Shown one piece after another: positions 10,975 through 33,361 of a DNA stretch of 64,000 bases. Within the stretch, counting starts at the first letter, position 1. Each line of letters begins with the position of its first letter. The position numbers and the translations under genes were made by a program. Source of the DNA: a virus; the IMG/VR virus record IMGVR_UViG_3300042542_005394, positions 49,003-113,002 of that record. The stretch is one strand, 5' to 3'. The notes under the pieces were generated by a model. It saw only the letters and a list, made by a program, of their open reading frames with translations, was not told the DNA's origin and ran no database searches.

Positions 10975-10981
10975 ATACACC
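10975..10981 (-). promoter_or_regulatory. GGTGTAT motif (candidate phage-specific promoter) upstream of phoH
   Basis: Same motif recurs in many intergenic gaps at a similar distance from start codons. Confidence 0.55.
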
Positions 10982-21475: not shown

Positions 21476-22109
21476 TATTTTTTGCCATATTTTTATAGAA
21501 TGAATTTTGACTTCTTTGTTTATTTATGTGTTTTCTATGCAAAATAGCTACTCTACCATCGTCTGAAATAGCGGCACTAGATTTAAATCCTTCTAGGTGC
21601 TCATGTACAAATCCACTCCAGTGTATTAAGTTATTATTTTTGTAAATCCTTGGCTGGTAGTCTGGCCAATTTATCCATCCTTTTTCATTTATTTTCCATG
21701 ACCATTTTTTAATATCCTCTTCAGTTAATCCATCAACAATATTAATACGTGGAAGATAATATAAATCTATATCATTGGAAGCTATCTCTTTTCTTAATGC
21801 TTGAATAGCATCAAAACGCATTTCCTCATCAGCATCAAAATTAAAAATATATGGCTGAGATGCTTGGCTAGTCATATAGTTTTTAAGTTCAGCAAAATTA
21901 TTTTTAAAATGGAAAGTGCTATATTTATTAGAGTATCTCTGGCAAATTTCTTCTATAAGCTTATAATTGTCTGTTTCTTTTTCGGATTCGTCTCTGTATG
22001 TTTGAATAATGACTAGTTCATCATTATCTTTTTTAGCACCATTAAGTAGCGTTATTAGCTTGATAATCTCTTTGGTTTCATTATATACTGTAACACAATA
22101 TGAGATCAT
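21459..22109 (-). CDS. Glycosyltransferase family 2
   Basis: VTVYNE, FDADE, WPDYQPRIY, VHE. Confidence 0.88.
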   Translation of the reverse strand: MISYCVTVYNETKEIIKLITLLNGAKKDNDELVIIQTYRDESEKETDNYKLIEEICQRYSNKYSTFHFKNNFAELKNYMTSQASQPYIFNFDADEEMRFDAIQALRKEIASNDIDLYYLPRINIVDGLTEEDIKKWSWKINEKGWINWPDYQPRIYKNNNLIHWSGFVHEHLEGFKSSAAISDDGRVAILHRKHINKQRSQNSFYKNMAKNNVHEY

Positions 22110-22597
22110 ATTTTAATATTCCTAATCCAGGATAGGTCGGGATCGATATACTCTATATTAATACCGCTCATTTGTATAAACAAGTTGAATCTTTTTTGGT
22201 GTTCATCATCAAACAGATGAGTTCCGTGGTTTTTCCTCATAAATACTTTGGTAATACCTTCTTGCCATAGGGCCATGATACAATCATTGCAGCATTGACC
22301 AGTAACATATGCTATTCCATTTTCTGGTCTTATGGTGCAGTTTGAGAGGGCGTTCCTTTCCGCATGAATCATCCAAGGATATTTATCTGGCCTAGTATTA
22401 GGCAGTTTGCTATCGTCTAATCCTTTTGGAAATCCATTATATCCAACTCCCAAAATTCTATTGTCCTTATCTGTGATGACACAACCGTGTTTGGTTTGAA
22501 TGTCATGACTGCGCATTGCTACTGCGTGAGCTAGTCCTATAAAATATTCGTTCCACGATGGGCGATTAGTGGCTTTTGATTGATCTGTCATGATCAA
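22106..22597 (-). CDS. dCMP deaminase
   Basis: RPSWNEYF, GYNGFP, HAERNA, CCNDC. Confidence 0.92.
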   Translation of the reverse strand: MIMTDQSKATNRPSWNEYFIGLAHAVAMRSHDIQTKHGCVITDKDNRILGVGYNGFPKGLDDSKLPNTRPDKYPWMIHAERNALSNCTIRPENGIAYVTGQCCNDCIMALWQEGITKVFMRKNHGTHLFDDEHQKRFNLFIQMSGINIEYIDPDLSWIRNIKI

Positions 22598-22643: not shown

Positions 22644-25600
22644 CTATATTCTTCCTGAACAGGTGGTGAATCTAGGGACTTGGTTTGCGATACCTCCAAC
22701 ATCGCTCCAATTAAATATGCCATACGCATTGTATAATGGATATGGATATTCATTCCATTTATCAAGATCTATTTTACCCCAACGAGTATATAGAACTATA
22801 CCCGATGCTACGGGAGAGTCATTAAAATCAGGCCACTCTACTGTATAAGTACCACCACATCCGGTACTATTATTCATAGTCATAAAAGTACTTTGTATAT
22901 TTCCTCTATGTAAAGAATTAGTGAAGTCCACACTATAACTAACTCCTATATCTGCATCGTTTAAAGAATTATTTATTATAATATATCGATTACCAGTATT
23001 AGTAGATATATTGCCATAGTTAACAGAGCTATAAAACCAAGCGTCATTATTAATTCTATATATGGCTCTAAATCCAGTGCTGCTGGTCATCGTCATATCG
23101 TAAGCTTGAATATTACTATAATTTGTAGAAAGAGTAAAGTTAATAGTACGAGCACTTAAAAATCCTCTGTTTTCCGATTGATTAAAAATAATAGAACCAA
23201 CGCCGTTAGGATCATTTCCTGTATTAACAGATATGTTACCATAATTGATGGAGTTTGAAAATAAACAACTTAAATTACACAATCCAGAGTTAACAGAATT
23301 AGTAAAATATACTGATTCGAAAATATTATCTCCCGATGAAGCTGGTCCTTGTATTTTGCCATAGTTTATTGAGTTATAAAAATAAGGATATATAACATTT
23401 CCATAATTAATAGTATTGCTAAATGAGGATTTTCCTGCAATACTACCGCTGTTGATACATGACTGCGGTGAGGAACCACTGAAGATTGCTGTGGTATGTT
23501 CATTTGCTACCACTGGATAATTTGTAATATTTCCTTTGTTTGTGGAGTTATGCAAAAAATTATATTGATTGTAGCCATATAAATTTGCTAAATTTTGTGA
23601 ATAATCTAGAAAGCTTAATTTATTATTTAAAAATCCGGTATAGAAATCAGATAAAAACTGTAATTTATCACTATCTAAATCTCCGTTTGGTCCAGAGTAA
23701 TGGGTCAGGTCGTCATTGATTTTTAAAAAAATACCATCTGAATTAAAAATAAAATTATTACCAAAAATAAGATTACCAGAATTAACACTATTTTGACCAA
23801 AACTTACAATGCTATTATATATAGTAGATAGGTTTACTGAATATCCGCTAAAAATGATATTTGCTCTATTAATTCTATCAAATGATCCTGCATTTTTAGA
23901 GAAATTTAAAAATAATGCATTGGTTGCTGCTCCTGTTTTTCTGTTAGAGCTATTATCTTGAAATATTCCACTATTGACTAAGCCTTCATTATATGACTGA
24001 TTATAAAAAAACCAAATTAATCCCGAGCTGTTTTTAGAAGCAGATGATGAGTCGATATACGATCCGCTCCCCACAAATTTTTTATTTATCGCACTATTCT
24101 CAAAGTTGGCTTTTAAACAAAATCCTTCGTTCGAAGATTTATCATAAAAATCAAAACTGAAGTTTTCATTGCCACCAGAGCCATAATTAATACTATTGTC
24201 ATGGAATTGTGCTACTATTACATTTGGATTATATACTACATCCCCCATTTGATTCACATAATAATGACAATTTATAGATGAATCATTAAAAGTAGCACCA
24301 ACCAGAATAGGATTATCATTACCATATCCGCCAATTAATTGATTATTATTAAAGCTTAAATATATTCCATTTCTAGATTTATCATAAAAAGATGCATATT
24401 CTCCACGACCATAGTTTTGACTATTGTCATAGTAACTAGCATTTTCTGACCAACCATGATTATAGCTTTTATCGTTAAATCTACCATAAATCAAACCAGT
24501 AAGTCCAGAATTAGCAGAAGTATCGAAAAAAGAAGCCTGGTTAATTACTGCTTGAGCATAACTTAAGTTATAGCTTTGTTTATAAAAAGCTCCTGAATAT
24601 ACAGAACCTGCATTTATTGATGAATAAAAAAAAGCTTGACCAACTATTCTTCCTTCATTTGCGTTAACAGCATTGTTGAACGAAGCTTTGACAACCTGAT
24701 CACCAAAATTAGTTGAGTTAGTAAATTGACAATTAAAACTATCTAAATTTTCTCTTAACCATTTGTACCAATGAATATTTGGGATTGTTTCCTGGTCAAA
24801 AAAATTAGAAACATAATTCCCACTAGTATAGTCTTGCATAAATAAATGAGGAACATCATATTCTATTGCTTCTAGTAAGAAAGGCTGTTTTCTCGATGGA
24901 ACACCCTCAATATTATCTTTTTTTCTCCCTATCAAAAAGAAATCTTTGGATATCAATGCTCTTATCTTGCCATAATTCTTACTATCTTGTGTAAACGAGA
25001 CATTTTGAGAAGTTAAAGAACTGTTGTTGATACTTATTTGATTAAATGTTATATTTGGTGATTTTATCGGAAAGTAATTGTTAGAATTTTTGAATATTAT
25101 CTCTCCCTCGGTTCTGATAGTTCCATAGTTGCGCGAACCTATATACAATTGATCATCTGAATTAATTGGATTTACAGCAGACAAGAAAGAAACACTGCAT
25201 CCTTTTCCAACATACGGTCCATATTTTTGTTCTATATCTACAATAACAAAAGGATTACCTTCTTCTATTAGTTGTTGTGCTAGGCTCTGAGCACCTTCAA
25301 GGTTTGTGTGCTCGCGAAAAAAATCACCAGAACTTATAATCAATCCGGAATTAATTGAATTAATAAAAGTAATACTATTGTCACCAGAAATAGAACCATA
25401 ATTGATTGATTGACTATCATAAGAATTATATGGAGATGTAAATGTAGCATCAGATAATAATATGCCTCTATTAGTGGCATTTTTAAAAGTAGTTATACCA
25501 GATATACTACCGTAGTTTGTAGCTATAATACTTTGATTAGTGCTAAAATCATAACCTCCTCGCTGCCACGGTTGTCCTGTGGTTTCAAAAATTACATCAC

Positions 25601-26498
25601 CAATTATAGTTCCTCTATTAATAGAGTTTATGAAGTGTGCATTTCCTATTATGTTTCCCCAGTTTTCTGCTTGATCATAAAAAATACAATTACCAGTTAC
25701 TGTTCCGAAATTATAGGACTTACTGAAAGAGCTTCCTGTTGAAAAAATAGCACTGCCTACAACCGTTCCACGATTACTTGAGCCACGATCAAACAAAACA
25801 TTTCCATAAATAGTTCCATCAAAATAAGACCCATTATAAAAAGAAAAATCACCAACACCAGTAACTTTCTCACGAAAATTACCCAAAATAACATCACATT
25901 TATTTACTGTAAGGTTTGTGTTAGCTATCCAACTATTACAATTTATAGTTCCGGACAAAGCCGTTATATCACACCCAATAACTGCTGGTTGATCAAAAGC
26001 AAAACCACCACATATACAGAAGCTATTAGTATTTATTTTACAATTAATTATTGAGCCCTTGCCCCCGAAAGTCATTTCTGTGGGACTGCCACTACAATTA
26101 AAATTAAATTGATCAGTATCTATAACCAATGAAGCCATAAATACATTTCCGGTTGATAATATGGTTTCAGCTTCGTAATAGCAAAATTCTCCAGGCTCCC
26201 AGTGAGTAAGAGTAACCCCCGGACCAACCGTAAGTGTCGAAGTTTTTAAGTTTTCGCAAGTAAATTTTTTTTGCCCGAATGTATATGAATAATTATCATT
26301 TGTAGTAGAATCAATTTCTACATTAATATTAATGCTTTCTATAGATGGAATTTTTGTAAAACATGTAATATCGTCGATTTTTAAATTTATACTTTCTACT
26401 ACAATGTCATTAACTTCATTTATTGGTATAGTTTTATGTGGTTTGCTAAATTCAGCATTTTTGTACCACTTACTAGAATCACACCAGTTATTAGACAT
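22644..26498 (-). CDS. Large Asn/Gly/Ser/Phe-rich repeat protein (predicted beta-solenoid, probably virion/surface)
   Basis: Many F-x(2-3)-S-x-N-x-G repeats over 1284 aa. Confidence 0.7.
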   Translation of the reverse strand: MSNNWCDSSKWYKNAEFSKPHKTIPINEVNDIVVESINLKIDDITCFTKIPSIESININVEIDSTTNDNYSYTFGQKKFTCENLKTSTLTVGPGVTLTHWEPGEFCYYEAETILSTGNVFMASLVIDTDQFNFNCSGSPTEMTFGGKGSIINCKINTNSFCICGGFAFDQPAVIGCDITALSGTINCNSWIANTNLTVNKCDVILGNFREKVTGVGDFSFYNGSYFDGTIYGNVLFDRGSSNRGTVVGSAIFSTGSSFSKSYNFGTVTGNCIFYDQAENWGNIIGNAHFINSINRGTIIGDVIFETTGQPWQRGGYDFSTNQSIIATNYGSISGITTFKNATNRGILLSDATFTSPYNSYDSQSINYGSISGDNSITFINSINSGLIISSGDFFREHTNLEGAQSLAQQLIEEGNPFVIVDIEQKYGPYVGKGCSVSFLSAVNPINSDDQLYIGSRNYGTIRTEGEIIFKNSNNYFPIKSPNITFNQISINNSSLTSQNVSFTQDSKNYGKIRALISKDFFLIGRKKDNIEGVPSRKQPFLLEAIEYDVPHLFMQDYTSGNYVSNFFDQETIPNIHWYKWLRENLDSFNCQFTNSTNFGDQVVKASFNNAVNANEGRIVGQAFFYSSINAGSVYSGAFYKQSYNLSYAQAVINQASFFDTSANSGLTGLIYGRFNDKSYNHGWSENASYYDNSQNYGRGEYASFYDKSRNGIYLSFNNNQLIGGYGNDNPILVGATFNDSSINCHYYVNQMGDVVYNPNVIVAQFHDNSINYGSGGNENFSFDFYDKSSNEGFCLKANFENSAINKKFVGSGSYIDSSSASKNSSGLIWFFYNQSYNEGLVNSGIFQDNSSNRKTGAATNALFLNFSKNAGSFDRINRANIIFSGYSVNLSTIYNSIVSFGQNSVNSGNLIFGNNFIFNSDGIFLKINDDLTHYSGPNGDLDSDKLQFLSDFYTGFLNNKLSFLDYSQNLANLYGYNQYNFLHNSTNKGNITNYPVVANEHTTAIFSGSSPQSCINSGSIAGKSSFSNTINYGNVIYPYFYNSINYGKIQGPASSGDNIFESVYFTNSVNSGLCNLSCLFSNSINYGNISVNTGNDPNGVGSIIFNQSENRGFLSARTINFTLSTNYSNIQAYDMTMTSSTGFRAIYRINNDAWFYSSVNYGNISTNTGNRYIIINNSLNDADIGVSYSVDFTNSLHRGNIQSTFMTMNNSTGCGGTYTVEWPDFNDSPVASGIVLYTRWGKIDLDKWNEYPYPLYNAYGIFNWSDVGGIANQVPRFTTCSGRI

Positions 26499-26503
26499 TG
26501 TTT

Positions 26504-28324
26504 TTACTCATCTAAATATAAAGTTGCACTATCCAATAATTTACGATTGTTGATTGGATAAAATTGTTTATAACTTAGATTTCTTTTAGGAAAACCTTTA
26601 GTTGTAGATAACGCAAATAATAAACCAAATGCAGACTGATTTTTCCCGCAATAATAGGGAATACAATTACTACTACCAGAGCAACATTCTCCTGTTGGAG
26701 GATTAGCATTACAGCCCTCATATTGTTTTCTAATAAATTCATCTACACAAGGGCCAGTATTTGGTCCATTATTTAGAGCATTAATAAGTCTATACAACAG
26801 AGCATCAGAATTAGAAAGAAATCCACTAACAGCTAATAAAGAAGGTAAGTCAGGCGAAAGAATGATATTGTTCTCTTGCAAATCTAGTCCTATCCTAGCT
26901 CCAGCAGAAGCAACATTAGATGGACAAAATTTACTTCTACAACCCTTAAAGCTTGGACTGTGATTAAATTTAGTCATTCCTTTAAGATGACTTTCTGTAA
27001 CCAAAAAAGATCCTGGAGGAATAGGTCCCCAGCTAGGCTCTCCTCCACTATTCCAGTCCCCCCAACTATTTGCAATCAAATACACACACTCAGGATACTC
27101 TATTTTTGTATCATCATAGCCTATAATAGAAAAAGTATGATACCAAATTCTATCTGGATAAGCTACGCCGCTAGAATCTCGTGAATTAGGAAATCCTACA
27201 TTAGTCATCCAGACAACACCATATCCATTAAATAGTAAGTCTTTTATTCTATTCATTCTAGTATTATCGTCTCCGCCAATAAAAGATATTGTTTTAAATC
27301 TTTCTATGGCTGTATGATCGTTAACATAATCCGTGGTACCGGGCATTATTTCTGCAGCATTTTTATAGTTATAGTTATTTTTACTTTGAAAATATTTTAA
27401 AAATATATCATCAGTACACGCATAAAAATTAGGACCACTATTATTAATAAAATTACCATATCCTCCATAACTTTTCCTTTTTAGGATTCCAATATGTTTT
27501 AGAGTGGAAAAGTCTATATCCATCATCATTCGTAGTTCGATAATAGTATCTAGGTTAAGTTTGCTATTAGAATTTTTTTGTATGTATGAAAAATATAATC
27601 TATTAGTTTCTGGCGCCCCGCAGCACATTTCTTTATTTTCAACACAGGTTTTAGCCTGACAACATAAACTACCCGGCTCTTCTGGATTACAAGTTTCACA
27701 ACTTACACATTTAGGAGTAGTTTCAGGAGGAAAAACTTTGCAATAAAAGTCGGCTCCTGCCGCTCCTTTCTCTGGATTCTTTATACAGTTAAAGAAGTAC
27801 TCTGTGTCTCCTTCTCTATAAGAGCATCCTGGTGCCTGCTGATTTTGAGCTATTTCCTCCGTTACAATATCTGGTCCTAACATCATTAAACAGTCCGGTA
27901 ATGAGTTGTTACCAAAATGCTCAAGATACTCAGCAGACATGCGACTTTCCCATTTATGATATTCTCTAGTATTCTCAATATCGCATGCTCTGGTAATGTC
28001 GCAAGCATTTCTTACAGCATGAGATGTGCCGCTTCTTGTTGTTGGTTGAATTTCTGTAAAAGCTTCTGCATCTATACGGCTTAAAAATTTATATGGTATT
28101 CCTAACTTTCCTGCTCCCGTATCTTTTATCCCTAAAGGATTTTGCTCAGAAGGTACTATATCAACATAAGGAGCGCCTTCTATACATGGATACTTTAGAT
28201 GTCTCAGAAATCGTATTAAACGAGGTAAATCATACGGAGTACCATTAGCTTCATACATGATTATGGAGTCATAATAACACGGCTCCAGAGTGTACTGCAA
28301 ATATAATTCCTGGGGAGATAGCAT
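26504..28324 (-). CDS. Papain-family (C1) protease homologue lacking the catalytic Cys, with Cys-rich insertions
   Basis: Aligns to the 29594-31612 paralogue (SHAVRNACDITRA vs SHGTRNACDVTRA); WYHTFSIIGYD and ANSWG retained. Confidence 0.8.
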   Translation of the reverse strand: MLSPQELYLQYTLEPCYYDSIIMYEANGTPYDLPRLIRFLRHLKYPCIEGAPYVDIVPSEQNPLGIKDTGAGKLGIPYKFLSRIDAEAFTEIQPTTRSGTSHAVRNACDITRACDIENTREYHKWESRMSAEYLEHFGNNSLPDCLMMLGPDIVTEEIAQNQQAPGCSYREGDTEYFFNCIKNPEKGAAGADFYCKVFPPETTPKCVSCETCNPEEPGSLCCQAKTCVENKEMCCGAPETNRLYFSYIQKNSNSKLNLDTIIELRMMMDIDFSTLKHIGILKRKSYGGYGNFINNSGPNFYACTDDIFLKYFQSKNNYNYKNAAEIMPGTTDYVNDHTAIERFKTISFIGGDDNTRMNRIKDLLFNGYGVVWMTNVGFPNSRDSSGVAYPDRIWYHTFSIIGYDDTKIEYPECVYLIANSWGDWNSGGEPSWGPIPPGSFLVTESHLKGMTKFNHSPSFKGCRSKFCPSNVASAGARIGLDLQENNIILSPDLPSLLAVSGFLSNSDALLYRLINALNNGPNTGPCVDEFIRKQYEGCNANPPTGECCSGSSNCIPYYCGKNQSAFGLLFALSTTKGFPKRNLSYKQFYPINNRKLLDSATLYLDE

Positions 28325-28327
28325 AAT

Positions 28328-28576
28328 TTATTTGCTGGTTAATTTATTATATAAAACAAGAGTTAGCACACCACCAACTGTACCAGCAAATAGTCCAGCA
28401 GGAGATAGAGTTTCATATTTACCAATCATATATAAAATAGCCCCACCCATGTATGATCCTGCTACTCCAAGAGCGACCGTTTTAACAAAACCAAAATTTT
28501 CTTCGCCAGGAACTAAACTTTTAGCAATTGATCCCACGAATAAGCCATAAACACACCATACTAATAGACTAAACAT
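28328..28576 (-). CDS. GlsB/YeaQ/YmgE (transglycosylase-associated) membrane protein
   Basis: GLFVGSIAKSLVPG..LGVAGSYMGG; three hydrophobic segments. Confidence 0.85.
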   Translation of the reverse strand: MFSLLVWCVYGLFVGSIAKSLVPGEENFGFVKTVALGVAGSYMGGAILYMIGKYETLSPAGLFAGTVGGVLTLVLYNKLTSK

Positions 28577-28967
28577 TGGCAGCCTCCACTAAGGTTTGAA
28601 TATCATCATCCGTGAGAGTTTCTCCTGTATTCAGCAGGGCCGATAGTATGCTTAGCCCATATTTTTCATAATCTTCTCTGTTCATTTCTTTGCGTAAAAC
28701 TTTTTTGATTCTCATTTTGGTAAACCAACCACGATTTCTAGAAAATGTTTTTATTTGTTCTCCATATAATATATATTTATCTTCCGGAGAGCAACTAGAT
28801 GATAACTTATTTTTATTACATTCTTGTAGTATTCTGACGCAAGTGAGTATAATGCTAATTATCATCAAAATAGTAACAATAGCAAAGCCATATTCATCAT
28901 TTCTTTGCACTTGAGATTTTTCAAGAATTTTAATTGCTATATTTTTAAGTTTTTCATTACTATCCAT
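28569..28967 (-). CDS. Hypothetical membrane protein
   Basis: Hydrophobic segment FAIVTILMIISIIL; start refined to MDSNEK. Confidence 0.7.
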   Translation of the reverse strand: MDSNEKLKNIAIKILEKSQVQRNDEYGFAIVTILMIISIILTCVRILQECNKNKLSSSCSPEDKYILYGEQIKTFSRNRGWFTKMRIKKVLRKEMNREDYEKYGLSILSALLNTGETLTDDDIQTLVEAANV

Positions 28968-28971
28968 TAGT

Positions 28972-29322
28972 TTACCTTTTGTTGTTTTTAGGTAAGGGAC
29001 AAACACCATTTGGACAATCTTTACGAGGAGGAGTTGGCGCTGGTGTGACGGACTTAATTGGACCAATAGAAATAGTTCCTGAACCTTCATCCGGTTCGCA
29101 ATAATTACAATCTATTTTTTTAATACCATCACCACTCATATACCAACCCTTACCCTTGCATACAGGACAGTCTTTGCGCTTGTGTTTAATTGTGATCTCG
29201 TCTGAGTGCTTAGCTTTTATAATACCTCCAGCTATGACCACTGGGGCGGTTGTAGAGCCATAGTATGAGTCTTGAAATGAGAGAAAGCCTATAGCTAATA
29301 TTCCACACATTATTTTATTCAT
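28972..29322 (-). CDS. Secreted Cys-rich protein with DnaJ-like CxxCxGxG motif
   Basis: Signal-like N-terminus, CPVCKGKG..CNYC, Pro-rich linker, CPNGVCP. Confidence 0.7.
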   Translation of the reverse strand: MNKIMCGILAIGFLSFQDSYYGSTTAPVVIAGGIIKAKHSDEITIKHKRKDCPVCKGKGWYMSGDGIKKIDCNYCEPDEGSGTISIGPIKSVTPAPTPPRKDCPNGVCPLPKNNKR

Positions 29323-29323
29323 A

Positions 29324-29533
29324 TTACTTCCTCCATGGAAGAGGGATAACTTTATCTATACTATCTATTACTTTCTTAAGTGGTCTTGGTCTGTTAGGTT
29401 TGCTTGGAGAAGGAGTAACTTCTGGCTTTGGTTTGGACGGACCATATTTGTCAAAAAGAGCAGCTAATCTTTCGATTACGCTAATAATGAGATTGATTAA
29501 TGCTCTGATTTGCAATCTTTCTCTTAAATTCAT
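29324..29533 (-). CDS. Small Pro-rich hypothetical protein
   Basis: GAGGTGG RBS before MNLRER; GGTGTAT motif upstream. Confidence 0.7.
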   Translation of the reverse strand: MNLRERLQIRALINLIISVIERLAALFDKYGPSKPKPEVTPSPSKPNRPRPLKKVIDSIDKVIPLPWRK

Positions 29534-29569
29534 AAACCACCTCATAGAGTATTAATGCTACATATATTA

Positions 29570-29576
29570 ATACACC
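29570..29576 (-). promoter_or_regulatory. GGTGTAT motif
   Basis: Recurrent intergenic motif. Confidence 0.55.
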
Positions 29577-29593
29577 ACAAAATAGCCTATATT

Positions 29594-31612
29594 TTAGAGA
29601 TAGGTATCAAAGCCGTAATCTGGGAGTTTTTGTAGTGGAAACCCGTCGAATCCACTAAAAGCATACGATCCATTTTGAGAAAGCATACCTTCAGCAACAT
29701 CTGCGTGAATAAGAAACGATCCATCTGGAATTGGTCCCCATTCTGGATGACCACCATCGTTCCATTTGCCCCAGCTATTTTGAACTAGAAATGCTGGTTC
29801 TCCTTGGGTATCATCACATGCTATCCATGCCATGCAATTATGAGATGCTACTCCGTCTACTATATAACTGTGATTGTTTTTAACTTCTAAATTATATACT
29901 TTACCTATATATTTATTAGATTTAATGTTTCTAATAGGATTATATAAATAATTACTATCGTTTTTTAGTTTGGATACAGCATTCTTCAAATTCCAGGCTA
30001 GAGTATAAGAGCTATTATGAGAATTATAAGCAGTATCCCCATGTTTTTGCTCAAATATAGTTGGCTTATAGTCTAAATTAATTAATATATTTCTTAATTG
30101 ATAAATTAATGGTTTATTGCTCATACTGATATATTTGATTTCTTTTCTATAGAAACCATCACCACAAAAAATACCATCTATAATACTTTCTACATCCCAC
30201 CCTTCGGTTAATAAAAATTCTGGTATTTGTCGTTCTGTAGAATAATGACCAAACCAGCTATCAAATGAACGAGCTAATACGGAAGAATCACAGTACACTC
30301 GGATATAGGTTGTGTGTTCTTTAATTCTGATTTTAAGACCCAATATATCAAAAGCTTTTTTTAGTCTAGCTATATAATCTTTTTCTGTAATAGAAAAGGT
30401 AAAACAAATTTTATGATTTTTTACACTATTTCCATCGGCAATATATAGACCAAACATCCAAGCAACATCGTTATTAGGATGATTTAGTTGTTCCGGAATA
30501 TTTTTGGTTTTATTACTAATACCTATATATGGTAATCCTGCGAATGGTTTTGATTGAAATTTTGTTTTTGGAGTAACTAGCCAGTCCGTATCTATAATAT
30601 CTTTTGCTTCCACCCACATTAATTTTCTTTTTTCAACTTTTTGTTTTTGCTTTTTGATAACTAATACCCCGCCATCGGACTCTTCTATGTCTTCATATTC
30701 TTTAATATCTCTTATATTTCTAAAAATTAATATAGGATGCTCTGCTGTTACATTAAAAGAAGGTAATCCCCAAGCTCTAACAGATACCACTTCTCCATCA
30801 TAGTCTTTTTCAAAAACATGACTTACAGAATCGACTTCTCCGATATGATTAAATAGTTTATCTCCTACGTAAAAACTATTGATAGTTTTATTTCCATCGG
30901 GGGTAAAAACTAAAGAATTTGACATATAACAATGAGCCCAACTACCAGATACTTTTGCGAATCCCTTTTTATCTCTAGTATTACTAAATCCATAACTAGA
31001 GCATACGGCTAACCCATAACCATTAGCAAGAGCATCACGAGCTTCTTCTACTGTTCGTATTAGTGAAGCTGTCTTGATCTGGTGATCATTAGAAAGGTCT
31101 AATACCTTATCAGGAAGACCTCTGCCACCCCAACCCGCTCCTAAATTACCATTATATTTACTAAAGTCCACAAAACCATAATTCTTTCTTACCACAATAC
31201 CACCAACCTTACTAACAAATTCAGCTGCTCTGGCACAACTCATGCCCTGTCCACTAAATCCCCTATATCCATAGATAGCCTCTGTTGCACCCCTTGCTGT
31301 CCAATCCTCTCTCTCGTTATGTACATCTATTTCTACTGCTCTTGTAACATCACAAGCGTTTCGTGTTCCATGACTAACACAATCCCCAGTGGTTTGTCTT
31401 TCGTTATAAGGATTTTTATCAAATTTTAACACACTCTTATATGGTGTTGATAGTTTACCCTTACCACTACCACTAATTTTTTTACTAGCATCACCGAATA
31501 GTGGATATTTGGAAGTTTCCATCAAATGATCATATACGTGCTGTTCAAATAAACAACCACTAAAACCATTACGATAATTATCATATAATTCTTTTGGTGT
31601 CATTCTTGCCAT
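29594..31612 (-). CDS. Papain-family (C1) cysteine protease containing an intein
   Basis: QTTGDCVSH (Gln/Cys), WAH|CMAW (His), QNSWG (Asn). Confidence 0.88.
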   Translation of the reverse strand: MARMTPKELYDNYRNGFSGCLFEQHVYDHLMETSKYPLFGDASKKISGSGKGKLSTPYKSVLKFDKNPYNERQTTGDCVSHGTRNACDVTRAVEIDVHNEREDWTARGATEAIYGYRGFSGQGMSCARAAEFVSKVGGIVVRKNYGFVDFSKYNGNLGAGWGGRGLPDKVLDLSNDHQIKTASLIRTVEEARDALANGYGLAVCSSYGFSNTRDKKGFAKVSGSWAHCYMSNSLVFTPDGNKTINSFYVGDKLFNHIGEVDSVSHVFEKDYDGEVVSVRAWGLPSFNVTAEHPILIFRNIRDIKEYEDIEESDGGVLVIKKQKQKVEKRKLMWVEAKDIIDTDWLVTPKTKFQSKPFAGLPYIGISNKTKNIPEQLNHPNNDVAWMFGLYIADGNSVKNHKICFTFSITEKDYIARLKKAFDILGLKIRIKEHTTYIRVYCDSSVLARSFDSWFGHYSTERQIPEFLLTEGWDVESIIDGIFCGDGFYRKEIKYISMSNKPLIYQLRNILINLDYKPTIFEQKHGDTAYNSHNSSYTLAWNLKNAVSKLKNDSNYLYNPIRNIKSNKYIGKVYNLEVKNNHSYIVDGVASHNCMAWIACDDTQGEPAFLVQNSWGKWNDGGHPEWGPIPDGSFLIHADVAEGMLSQNGSYAFSGFDGFPLQKLPDYGFDTYL
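29837..30931 (-). mobile_element. Intein with LAGLIDADG homing endonuclease (365 aa)
   Basis: Starts CYMSNSLV; block B VTAEHP; GLYIADG and GIFCGDG; block F VYNLEV; ends SHN followed by Cys+1. Confidence 0.93.
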
Positions 31613-32100
31613 TATTTACTAGCCTCATTATAAGCCCAAGCTAATGCATTGAAACCATCTACAGCCTTAGCTCTTAGTTCTGTTGAAAGATTGATATTAT
31701 CGTCGCCAACTGCTGCGAACATGACCTCTTTAGCTTCTTTGGCTAAATTTGGATATTTGCCTTTCACATCCAACTTTAACATAGGACCAGCAATACTATT
31801 AGCTTGGCGAATCTCATCAGTATTTTTAATTACAACATCTTCGCCATCTAATTTAACCAATCGTCCTAGATCAAGACTCAAGTCTCGCAACCTCTTAAAA
31901 TCATTTTTTGAACCACCCGAACCTTTAAGCAAAGTTACTACATCATTTGCTTCTTTTTTAAGAGTTTCGTCTGTTGGAGCAGTTAGCTCCATCACATCTA
32001 CATTAGCTGGGGAAACTGGCACAAATCTAGATGGGTCTAACTTAGTTAACCCTACCAATATTAGTAATCCAGCAACAACTAGAATTATATTCTTATTCAT
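31612..32100 (-). CDS. Secreted/membrane-anchored hypothetical protein
   Basis: N-terminal MNKNIILVVAGLLILVGL. Confidence 0.75.
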   Translation of the reverse strand: MNKNIILVVAGLLILVGLTKLDPSRFVPVSPANVDVMELTAPTDETLKKEANDVVTLLKGSGGSKNDFKRLRDLSLDLGRLVKLDGEDVVIKNTDEIRQANSIAGPMLKLDVKGKYPNLAKEAKEVMFAAVGDDNINLSTELRAKAVDGFNALAWAYNEASK

Positions 32101-32474
32101 TTGACAGCATCCTTGTTACAAACATTAGGACTTAAGAAAGGAAACATTTGATCAGCCACCTTAACTGCTTCAGAACATCCGCTCTGAACAGCAAGATCGC
32201 GAGTTTGTTTCCAGCTTACTACCAGCTTAAAAAAAGTGTCTTCTGTATCATTCTTTTTAGACGGCAAAACTACTGGATCAATAGTTGGAACATTAACAAC
32301 CGGTAAGGCTGATCCACTCTTAATCTTCTCGGTTAGTGATAAAAGAAACTTTTGAACCGGACTAAGTTTATCCTTAAACAATACCCATAATACTAATCCC
32401 ACACCAGCATAAAGAGCCAGATCCGTTGGGCCTAACTTGCTGCTAAATTCTTGAAAACTTTCTGTAAAATTCAT
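32097..32474 (-). CDS. Single-pass membrane protein
   Basis: LALYAGVGLVLWVLF. Confidence 0.75.
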   Translation of the reverse strand: MNFTESFQEFSSKLGPTDLALYAGVGLVLWVLFKDKLSPVQKFLLSLTEKIKSGSALPVVNVPTIDPVVLPSKKNDTEDTFFKLVVSWKQTRDLAVQSGCSEAVKVADQMFPFLSPNVCNKDAVK

Positions 32475-32485
32475 CTTAGCCTCTC

Positions 32486-32923
32486 TTATTTATCTGAAAC
32501 TCTGGGTTTAACATCAACAAAAGTATTTACCCTTACACTAGGATCAACAAATACGCCCGTTTGTCTAAATGTTGTGACCATAGCATCAATGGTAGAACTT
32601 ACTAGTATCATCAAAAACGATTTGAGATACTTATGTATAATAGGTTCAACCAGAGATGGAACAAAGGGAATATCTATCACAATGAAAACACTATCATAAA
32701 ACTTAGATAATAGATCCATAGCAATAACTTTTTTATCTTTACCAGTTAGGTCTGTCGCACTATTCTCTATGATCTGAACTGTGCTAGCTACTGCTAGTTG
32801 CAATATTTTCCACGCTTGAGATATAGCAACAGCTTTTACTTCTTTAAGTGATTGTTTGGCTTGATCTATTAGCTTATCAACTTCTGATAGTATAAGAGAT
32901 TGTATTTCTACAGAAACCGACAT
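32486..32923 (-). CDS. Hypothetical helical protein
   Basis: ORF with AAAGGA RBS; GGTGTAC motif upstream (32958-32964). Confidence 0.72.
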   Translation of the reverse strand: MSVSVEIQSLILSEVDKLIDQAKQSLKEVKAVAISQAWKILQLAVASTVQIIENSATDLTGKDKKVIAMDLLSKFYDSVFIVIDIPFVPSLVEPIIHKYLKSFLMILVSSTIDAMVTTFRQTGVFVDPSVRVNTFVDVKPRVSDK

Positions 32924-32972
32924 AGTTTTATCCTTTATATAAGAGCTACTATAAGTAGTACACCAAAAACGG

Positions 32973-33311
32973 CTATTTTTTAATCTGTGGTTTTTTCTTG
33001 GTTTTTCTGGTTACTGGCTTCTTTTTCTGTTTGGGAACCGTTATCGTTTCGGTTTTTGGAGATTCTGGGTGATTGTCTTTTTCTGAACTCCACCAAATTT
33101 TTTTAATTTCTGTTCGTCCTTTAATATAGCGAAATAGTACCGCTAATTGACCTATAATCAAAATAAAGGCCTCAACTCCTCTACTAGTTTCTGCTATTAG
33201 ATCTTCTTTTTGACCATGATCATCCAATAATCCCACTAGGTATAGACCACTAAAAATAAAACTTACTACGGTTAACCAGAATTCACTAGTTCTATAGCCG
33301 GGTTTTACCAT
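32973..33311 (-). CDS. Putative holin-like membrane protein
   Basis: KPGYRTSEFW, two TM segments, highly basic C-terminus. Confidence 0.55.
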   Translation of the reverse strand: MVKPGYRTSEFWLTVVSFIFSGLYLVGLLDDHGQKEDLIAETSRGVEAFILIIGQLAVLFRYIKGRTEIKKIWWSSEKDNHPESPKTETITVPKQKKKPVTRKTKKKPQIKK

Positions 33312-33354: not shown

Positions 33355-33361
33355 ATACACC
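33355..33361 (-). promoter_or_regulatory. GGTGTAT motif
   Basis: Recurrent intergenic motif. Confidence 0.55.

Follow-up and report, generated by a model that had tools for sequence, protein, structure and literature searches.

The genes described here lie within a 64,000-nt stretch of viral DNA, referred to below as the window, which corresponds to bases 49003-113002 of the 113-kb IMG/VR virus record IMGVR_UViG_3300042542_005394 (CheckV 82% complete, 33% GC). An initial annotation of the window had singled out ten genes as a candidate protease-centred module for lysis or envelope remodelling, and all ten (A to J) were found where it had placed them, co-oriented on the minus strand. They are listed below by window position together with gene K, which lies outside the region first noted; lengths are in amino acids (aa) and TM stands for transmembrane.

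A, 32973..33311, minus strand: 112 aa, holin-like; N-terminus conserved (KPGYRTSEFW), with two hydrophobic helices and a C-terminal tail rich in Lys
B, 32486..32923, minus strand: 145 aa, helical, one hydrophobic stretch
C, 32097..32474, minus strand: 125 aa, membrane protein with one TM segment and, in its C-terminal domain, two conserved Cys
D, 31612..32100, minus strand: 162 aa, N-terminal signal anchor and helical domain
E, whole open reading frame, 29594..31612, minus strand: 672 aa including an intein
E, N-extein, 30932..31612, minus strand: 227 aa, with Gln, the catalytic Cys (TGDC) and, as last residue, the catalytic His
Intein in E, 29837..30931, minus strand: 365 aa, including a LAGLIDADG homing endonuclease; it follows the catalytic His directly and has Cys as its +1 residue
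E, C-extein, 29594..29836, minus strand: 80 aa, with the NSWG motif (Asn, Trp)
F, 29324..29545, minus strand: 73-aa peptide, amphipathic or hydrophobic helix and a Pro/Lys-rich tail
G, 28972..29322, minus strand: 116 aa, exported, with a signal-like N-terminus, an Ala/Val/Ile-rich segment, a CxxCxGxG zinc ribbon, further Cys and a Pro-rich tail
H, 28569..28967, minus strand: 132 aa, single-pass membrane protein with a conserved C-terminal domain
I, 28328..28576, minus strand: 82 aa, three TM segments, GlsB/YeaQ/YmgE family
J, 26504..28324, minus strand: 606 aa, catalytically dead paralogue of E with Cys-rich inserts
K, 22644..26498, minus strand: 1284 aa, Asn-rich repeat protein, fibre-like

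Gene order on related contigs, which the initial annotation had proposed as a check, was followed in 80 related IMG/VR loci, retrieved with an intein-free homologue of E and searched for the individual genes by tblastn. The order A-B-C-D-E-(F)-G-H-I was preserved in about 75 of the 80 loci, and the genes detected never departed from this order and orientation. The counts were 74 loci for A, 76 for B, 78 for C, 79 for D, 80 for E, 75 for G and 73 each for H and I; the short F was detected in 24. In these 80 loci the block was usually followed by a homologue of the 163-aa gene found at 22106-22597 of the window. The co-oriented genes A to I (minus strand, 33311-28328) are thus one conserved module, within which the stop codon of D overlaps the start codon of E (TAATG), indicating translational coupling. 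E is a core gene conserved about as strongly as the clamp loader: it was present in seven of eight records chosen by their clamp loader, including all four that were at least 90% complete, and between the record under study (G000) and the complete relative G001 identity was 88% for E, 88.6% for the clamp loader, 81% for UvsX and 56-75% for the neighbours A to D.

Within the block, Pfam support was obtained only for the intein and for I, which belongs to PF04226 (Transgly_assoc; 26.5 bits, cut-off 25.3). PF04226 was also found at the equivalent place in four complete relatives, where it served as a positive control for our six-frame scans. No meaningful match for A to D or F to H was obtained in Pfam, PHROGs or NCBIfam. 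Every one of the 726 homologues of A is named 'hypothetical', and the ESM Atlas gave no lead for this protein. B resembled Phage_holin_6_1 (Holin_LLH) below the cut-off (14.8 bits, cut-off 24.9, E-value 0.04). A resemblance of H to a SecDF variant (NCBIfam NF037998) was rejected; the E-value was 1.3e-6, but the score of 26.5 bits compares with a cut-off of 400 and probably reflects the composition of the TM segment.

J had been counted as part of the module, and this did not hold. J and K occurred in only nine of the 80 loci, inserted after I and with J always accompanied by the fibre-like K, and are an accessory insert outside the core. The view of J as an inactive paralogue of E was confirmed: J aligns with E by BLASTP (E-value 2e-15), and in all ten J sequences the nucleophilic Cys is replaced by Gly while the His and the NSWG motif are kept. 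J may be a fibre-associated binding module derived from E.

The papain-fold peptidase E and its inteins

The AlphaFold model of E (predicted local distance difference test, pLDDT, 94.1; predicted template modelling score, pTM, 0.93) retrieved xylellain, cathepsins B, K and L, and papain in Foldseek searches (E-value 4e-8, probability 1.0). In VIA comparisons it aligned with xylellain (PDB 3OIS) over 232 residues (Z 20.9, root mean square deviation 3.0) and with cathepsins and papain at Z 17-19. C78, H228 and W250 were invariant among 55 diverse aligned sequences, and Q73, N248 and S249 were conserved in at least 90% of them; this catalytic set is present in full in the exteins of the window's E. 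By its predicted two-lobe papain fold and its catalytic residues, E is a genuine C1-fold enzyme, predicted to act as a peptidase. Of the earlier description of E as an intein-split C1 protease, the fold and catalytic residues and, by Pfam, the intein were upheld, but the C1 assignment could not be made with Pfam. E gave no match to PF00112 at an E-value of 0.1, the six-frame scans were likewise negative, and the best relatives of E scored 17-19.5 bits (cut-off 20.7). Since this branch is divergent and falls below the Pfam cut-off, structure and catalytic residues are the basis of its C1 membership. In a search of solved structures, the E homologue P0002 gave a hit to phi92 gp138 (E-value 0.04), which we judged meaningless.

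In the VIA alignments, proenzymes matched model residues 5-291 and mature papains residues 49-291. Based on these ranges, the N-terminus of E would correspond to the cleft-covering end of a pro-segment, and the modelled enzyme is probably zymogen-like, its first ~45 residues superposing on the end of the pro-segment of procathepsins and xylellain.

The intein of E scored above the Pfam cut-offs for Intein_splicing (50.3 bits, cut-off 35.8), LAGLIDADG_3 (29.1, cut-off 22.5) and Hom_end (21.2, cut-off 21.1), and its junctions read ...SWAH|C... and ...SHN|C.... Its removal leaves a 307-aa product. The N-extein has 1513 homologues, and almost all of the 120 listed are intein-free proteins of 307-308 aa with 79-90% identity; the window's intein is missing from all 80 related loci. 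The wider E family comprises 1456 clusters at 50% identity, on contigs of up to 238 kb, and we inspected 150 representatives (P0121-P0270). Inteins interrupt 42 of these, directly before the catalytic Cys (which is then the +1 residue) in 25, directly after the catalytic His in 11 and at both places in six, and Pfam confirmed inteins in those large insertions that were tested. The E family is therefore a two-site intein hot spot at the catalytic Cys and His. Outside replication genes, it is unusual for inteins to sit at precisely the two catalytic residues.

Family E gave zero matches in 50,697 GenBank phage records. In cultured-phage records, full-length E was matched by its intein alone, and J and an intein-free E homologue were unmatched. 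Most structural proteins of the complete relative G001 likewise lack a PHROG match, which together with the missing GenBank matches indicates a deep uncultured lineage. The complete relatives, of which G001-G005 were used with G000 in the six-frame Pfam scans, measure 151-238 kb, and terminal repeats were seen in one, the 238-kb G003. The window itself encodes rIIA/rIIB, a UvsX-like recombinase, a DnaB-like helicase, a primase, a clamp loader and a ribonucleotide reductase, and the other 49 kb of the record encode giant tail-type proteins, one of 5082 aa. A search for E in 185,579 species genomes returned two contigs only: L093 (RFTN01000003.1), a 141-kb contig labelled 'bacterium' which is itself a phage genome, and L094 (RFNS01000261.1), a 2.6-kb contig binned in a Lake Lanier alphaproteobacterial metagenome-assembled genome. 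The latter is the only, and weak, hint of a host, and nothing was found to support the host with a protein-rich envelope that the initial annotation had envisaged. A literature search for a phage group or host of this lineage found none.

Placement of D, E and G, and a candidate promoter motif

In at least 14 representatives the protease is fused behind an N-terminal hydrophobic anchor, a ~130-aa helical domain and an RGPP-containing linker. The hidden Markov model of the D family, built from the window's lineage, matched the N-terminal domain of these fusions (E-values 1e-9 to 2e-3). Several fusions continue C-terminally with an Ala/Ile-rich segment and a G-like CxxCxGxG...C..C ribbon, and some end in a CxxC motif in a thioredoxin-like context. 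In the model of one fusion, a TM helix is followed after a spacer by a four-helix bundle (pLDDT 85-94), which a 60-residue linker of low confidence joins to the protease; the model does not fix the packing of the two domains. RGPP is conserved in the linker between the D and protease domains of P0147, P0162, P0176, P0183, P0190, P0205 and P0209 and could be a processing site. According to the positive-inside rule, 13 of the 14 fusions and 53 of 58 D proteins are oriented N-in/C-out. In addition, three E representatives carry RR leaders resembling those of twin-arginine translocation (Tat), one with a weak TAT_signal match. The window's E has neither a signal nor a hydrophobic N-terminus, and an anchor on the enzyme itself, as in signal-anchor-release (SAR) or signal-anchored endolysins, is seen only in fused distant homologues.

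The same partners recur in more distant phage groups, for which six loci (L095-L100) were compared. In these, E again has small TM proteins around it, and D-, G- and H-like genes occur in shuffled order (the H-like gene near E in L100). A two-TM protein of 58-74 aa stands beside E, and the small TM proteins gave no meaningful family match. In L098, L099 and L100 the product of the gene that follows E combines a lipobox with a zinc ribbon and a WCGPC thioredoxin domain, the domains scoring above the Pfam cut-offs. Just upstream of the two-TM gene and the protease, the distant groups also have a conserved ~190-aa protein with an N-terminal TM segment (L095:2107-2703, L098:432-1016, L099:7131-7706, L100:7124-7702), whose C-terminal domain gives a weak PAS_9 match (E-value 0.0034) and which could be a regulator of the module.

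Because of the fusions, the Tat-like signals and the lipoprotein/thioredoxin partner, D, E and G very probably act as one functional unit, a predicted extracytoplasmic protease system facing the periplasm. A frameshift fusion of D and E in the window was ruled out by stop codons in the frame of E just upstream of its ATG. A predicted complex of E with soluble D scored 0.00 in a run that had no controls and counts neither for nor against binding. Even without a role in lysis, the D-E-G(-thioredoxin) fusions represent a new, unannotated extracytoplasmic protease system.

This placement bears on the possibility, raised in the initial annotation as the outcome that would speak against it, that the protease acts only in virion maturation. 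E would then process the 5082-aa tail protein or head proteins, and its membrane-gene neighbours would be unrelated to it. Such a role would suit a highly conserved core gene in a genome that encodes giant repeat-linked proteins, and no S77/S78 prohead protease was detected in six records. In the fusions, however, the protease follows a membrane anchor and has export-type topology, Tat-like leaders occur on other homologues, the fused or adjacent partners are exported lipoprotein thioredoxins, and E was never found beside head genes in the loci examined. We therefore consider maturation highly improbable.

A further claim concerned three GGTGTA motifs among the genes. The three sites exist, and two of them are the enriched heptamer GGTGTAT, but the hexamer itself is not enriched in the window (19 found, 17.9 expected). 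GGTGTAT was found 14 times (6.3 expected), 13 of these on the coding strand, and the strand bias recurs in the 80 related loci (274 against 14). The sites at the block are the following.

GGTGTAT, 33355..33361, minus strand: 44-50 nt before the start codon of A; 39 of 74 loci carry the motif upstream of A
GGTGTA(C), 32959..32964, minus strand: in the intergenic space between A and B; the heptamer lies between A and B in 15 loci
GGTGTAT, 29570..29576, minus strand: after the stop codon of E and before the start codon of F; 36 of 75 loci carry the motif between E and G

Other GGTGTAT sites in the window include those at 10975, 14086, 36218, 42631 and 50213. Most sites are found 20-60 nt upstream of start codons, before metabolic and fibre-like genes alike, and the heptamer is a candidate phage-specific promoter element. 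Since about half of the loci have it ahead of A and between E and F/G, two transcription units may make up the block. Sigma-70-like promoters and intrinsic terminators were no more frequent than expected by chance.

The association of GGTGTAT with metabolic genes would also accord with E being a cytoplasmic protease of host takeover or anti-defence, functionally unrelated to the membrane genes around it, and 125 of the 150 E representatives have no signal peptide. Against this, distant homologues unite D and G with E in fusions, so that these are not unrelated neighbours, and the association with TM proteins survives the shuffling of gene order in the distant groups. A purely cytoplasmic role is thus very unlikely.

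A possible role in host lysis

The block is the strongest candidate for the lysis system of this phage group, although the chances that A to I form a late-acting, protease-centred lysis module appear to us only about even. In such a module E would first splice out its intein; as the intein directly follows the catalytic His, unspliced E cannot be active. Spliced E, signal-less and probably zymogen-like, would then build up in the cytoplasm until, at the end of infection, the inner membrane was permeabilised by A with its two TM segments, and perhaps also by B, C, H and I. E would meet D and G, cut peptide bonds in the envelope and lyse the cell, the candidate targets being the stem peptides or cross-links of peptidoglycan, or proteins that link the outer membrane with the wall. 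At the periplasmic face of the inner membrane, the anchored four-helix protein D, the C1 endopeptidase E and the exported zinc-ribbon protein G would make up the proposed core. That A is a holin is inferred here, as are the release, latency, substrate and lytic action of E. The further suggestion that a latent C1 endopeptidase replaces the muralytic endolysin, in concert with anchored D and exported G and with a thioredoxin domain that would control the catalytic thiol in some lineages, is a tentative one that may well not hold.

Signal-less phage enzymes that act in the periplasm are canonical endolysins, released by holins, and the lack of a signal on E fits such holin-gated release. The occurrence of soluble, anchored and signal-bearing forms within one enzyme family is likewise typical of endolysins. 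A has a size, two hydrophobic helices and a Lys-rich tail that would suit a holin, and the putative role is drawn from its topology. The remark in the initial annotation that no muramidase or amidase is recognisable nearby extends to the whole 113-kb record, in which none of these families was found. The genome-wide search for canonical endolysins and spanins that it had recommended was made in six reading frames: 14 lysin and peptidoglycan-binding Pfam families, Phage_holin_T and the Rz spanin (PF03245) were not found in G000 and four or five complete relatives, which is weak evidence, and PF05257 (CHAP) and PF00877 (NlpC/P60) gave no match in these genomes.

Several observations weigh against a lytic function. 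The absence of lysin matches says little because the scan also missed the C1 enzyme E (PF00112) and the lineage is divergent; nor did it find an S77/S78 prohead protease in G000-G005. A matches no holin family, so that the earlier term holin-like stands for its size and topology but not for family membership. No lipobox was found in A to I, and the block of this lineage thus has no recognisable lipobox spanin; a G-like protein that is a lipoprotein was seen only in the distant loci L098-L100. GGTGTAT, which also precedes phoH- and nrdB-type genes, is no marker of late timing. E is conserved like replication proteins, whereas endolysins tend to vary and none is known to host an intein. We also know of no C1-family enzyme that cuts peptidoglycan. 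The papain-fold wall peptidases of phages are NlpC/P60 and CHAP enzymes, not C1 (PMC10318531).

The evidence for an extracytoplasmic unit serves equally well for a non-lytic remodelling of the envelope, in which the periplasmic protease, with its anchor and redox partner, would destroy or trim one of the host's envelope proteins in the course of infection. This might be the receptor of the phage itself, for superinfection exclusion or to spare the progeny from debris, or a periplasmic or membrane component of a defence system. C1 enzymes normally cut proteins rather than wall peptides, and the dead J with its Cys-rich inserts, always found with fibre-like K, would fit a binding module for a surface ligand that E cuts. 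However, J and K are confined to the nine loci mentioned above, exclusion genes are usually accessory and fast-evolving whereas E is a core gene with 75-90% identity, and the missing export signal on the window's E is hard to square with action in an intact cell. We consider remodelling rather unlikely. The broader reading of the initial annotation, an envelope module, is retained as regards the conserved module, its papain-fold enzyme and the extracytoplasmic unit, but without J as a core part.

If A to I do serve lysis, big aquatic phages of a large and abundant group burst their hosts with a papain-type protease and no known endolysin. Phage lysis would then gain an enzyme class and a control logic that are both new, with a separate anchor, a redox partner, zymogen-like latency and gating by an intein. 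It would also explain why lysins escape annotation in these genomes and would offer a new type of envelope-active enzyme for study. That a lysis system of this type is both previously undescribed and widespread in a large lineage of uncultured aquatic phages is possible, if somewhat doubtful; on this reading the enzyme is so well conserved that it became an intein hot spot at its catalytic Cys and His. No description of such a protease-centred module was found in literature searches, nor in PMC7824862, PMC10318531 and 10.1101/655167.

Comparison with known systems

The best structural match of E is xylellain, the C1 protease of Xylella fastidiosa (3OIS), with which it shares the Gln, Cys, His and Asn(SW) residues, and the N-terminal segment of E superposes on the pro-region of the xylellain, papain and cathepsin proenzymes. 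E differs from xylellain and the papains in being phage-encoded, only 12-17% identical, below the PF00112 cut-off and without a classical I29 prodomain. It is also paired with an anchored protein encoded separately (D) and with a zinc-ribbon protein (G), and inteins interrupt it at the catalytic residues. CHAP and NlpC/P60 are also Cys-His enzymes of papain-like fold, with which phages cut the peptide links of peptidoglycan (PMC10318531). E belongs to a different family from these (C51 and C40), and its fold matches are C1 proteinases, not CHAP or NlpC.

Among viral enzymes, V-cath of baculoviruses is a C1 proenzyme that stays latent until the end of infection and then dissolves host structures for release. 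The proposed role of E resembles it in that a virus-encoded latent C1 proenzyme would be used late, whereas V-cath acts on eukaryotic host tissue rather than a bacterial envelope and is no close relative of E (weak BFVD hits, E-value ~2e-3). The thioredoxin partner in L098-L100, with its lipoprotein or anchor signal and WCGPC thioredoxin domain, is similar to the anchored periplasmic thioredoxins of the TlpA/ResA/CcmG type. Unlike them, it carries a fused CxxCxGxG ribbon and has a protease as its partner, and the window's G has no thioredoxin domain.

Holin-endolysin and SAR or signal-anchored cassettes offer a parallel in organization, as the E family likewise includes signal-less forms beside a two-TM protein, anchored forms and signal-bearing forms. 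All three export modes are known for endolysins, P1 Lyz and R21 of phage 21 being SAR or signal-anchored enzymes. E departs from these cassettes in its C1 protease fold, which is not that of a muramidase, an amidase or a known wall peptidase, in having its anchor on a separate gene in the window and in the absence of a recognisable spanin pair. In P1 Lyz the catalytic Cys is under thiol/disulfide control, and this control has its match in the thioredoxin and zinc-ribbon partners of the E family.

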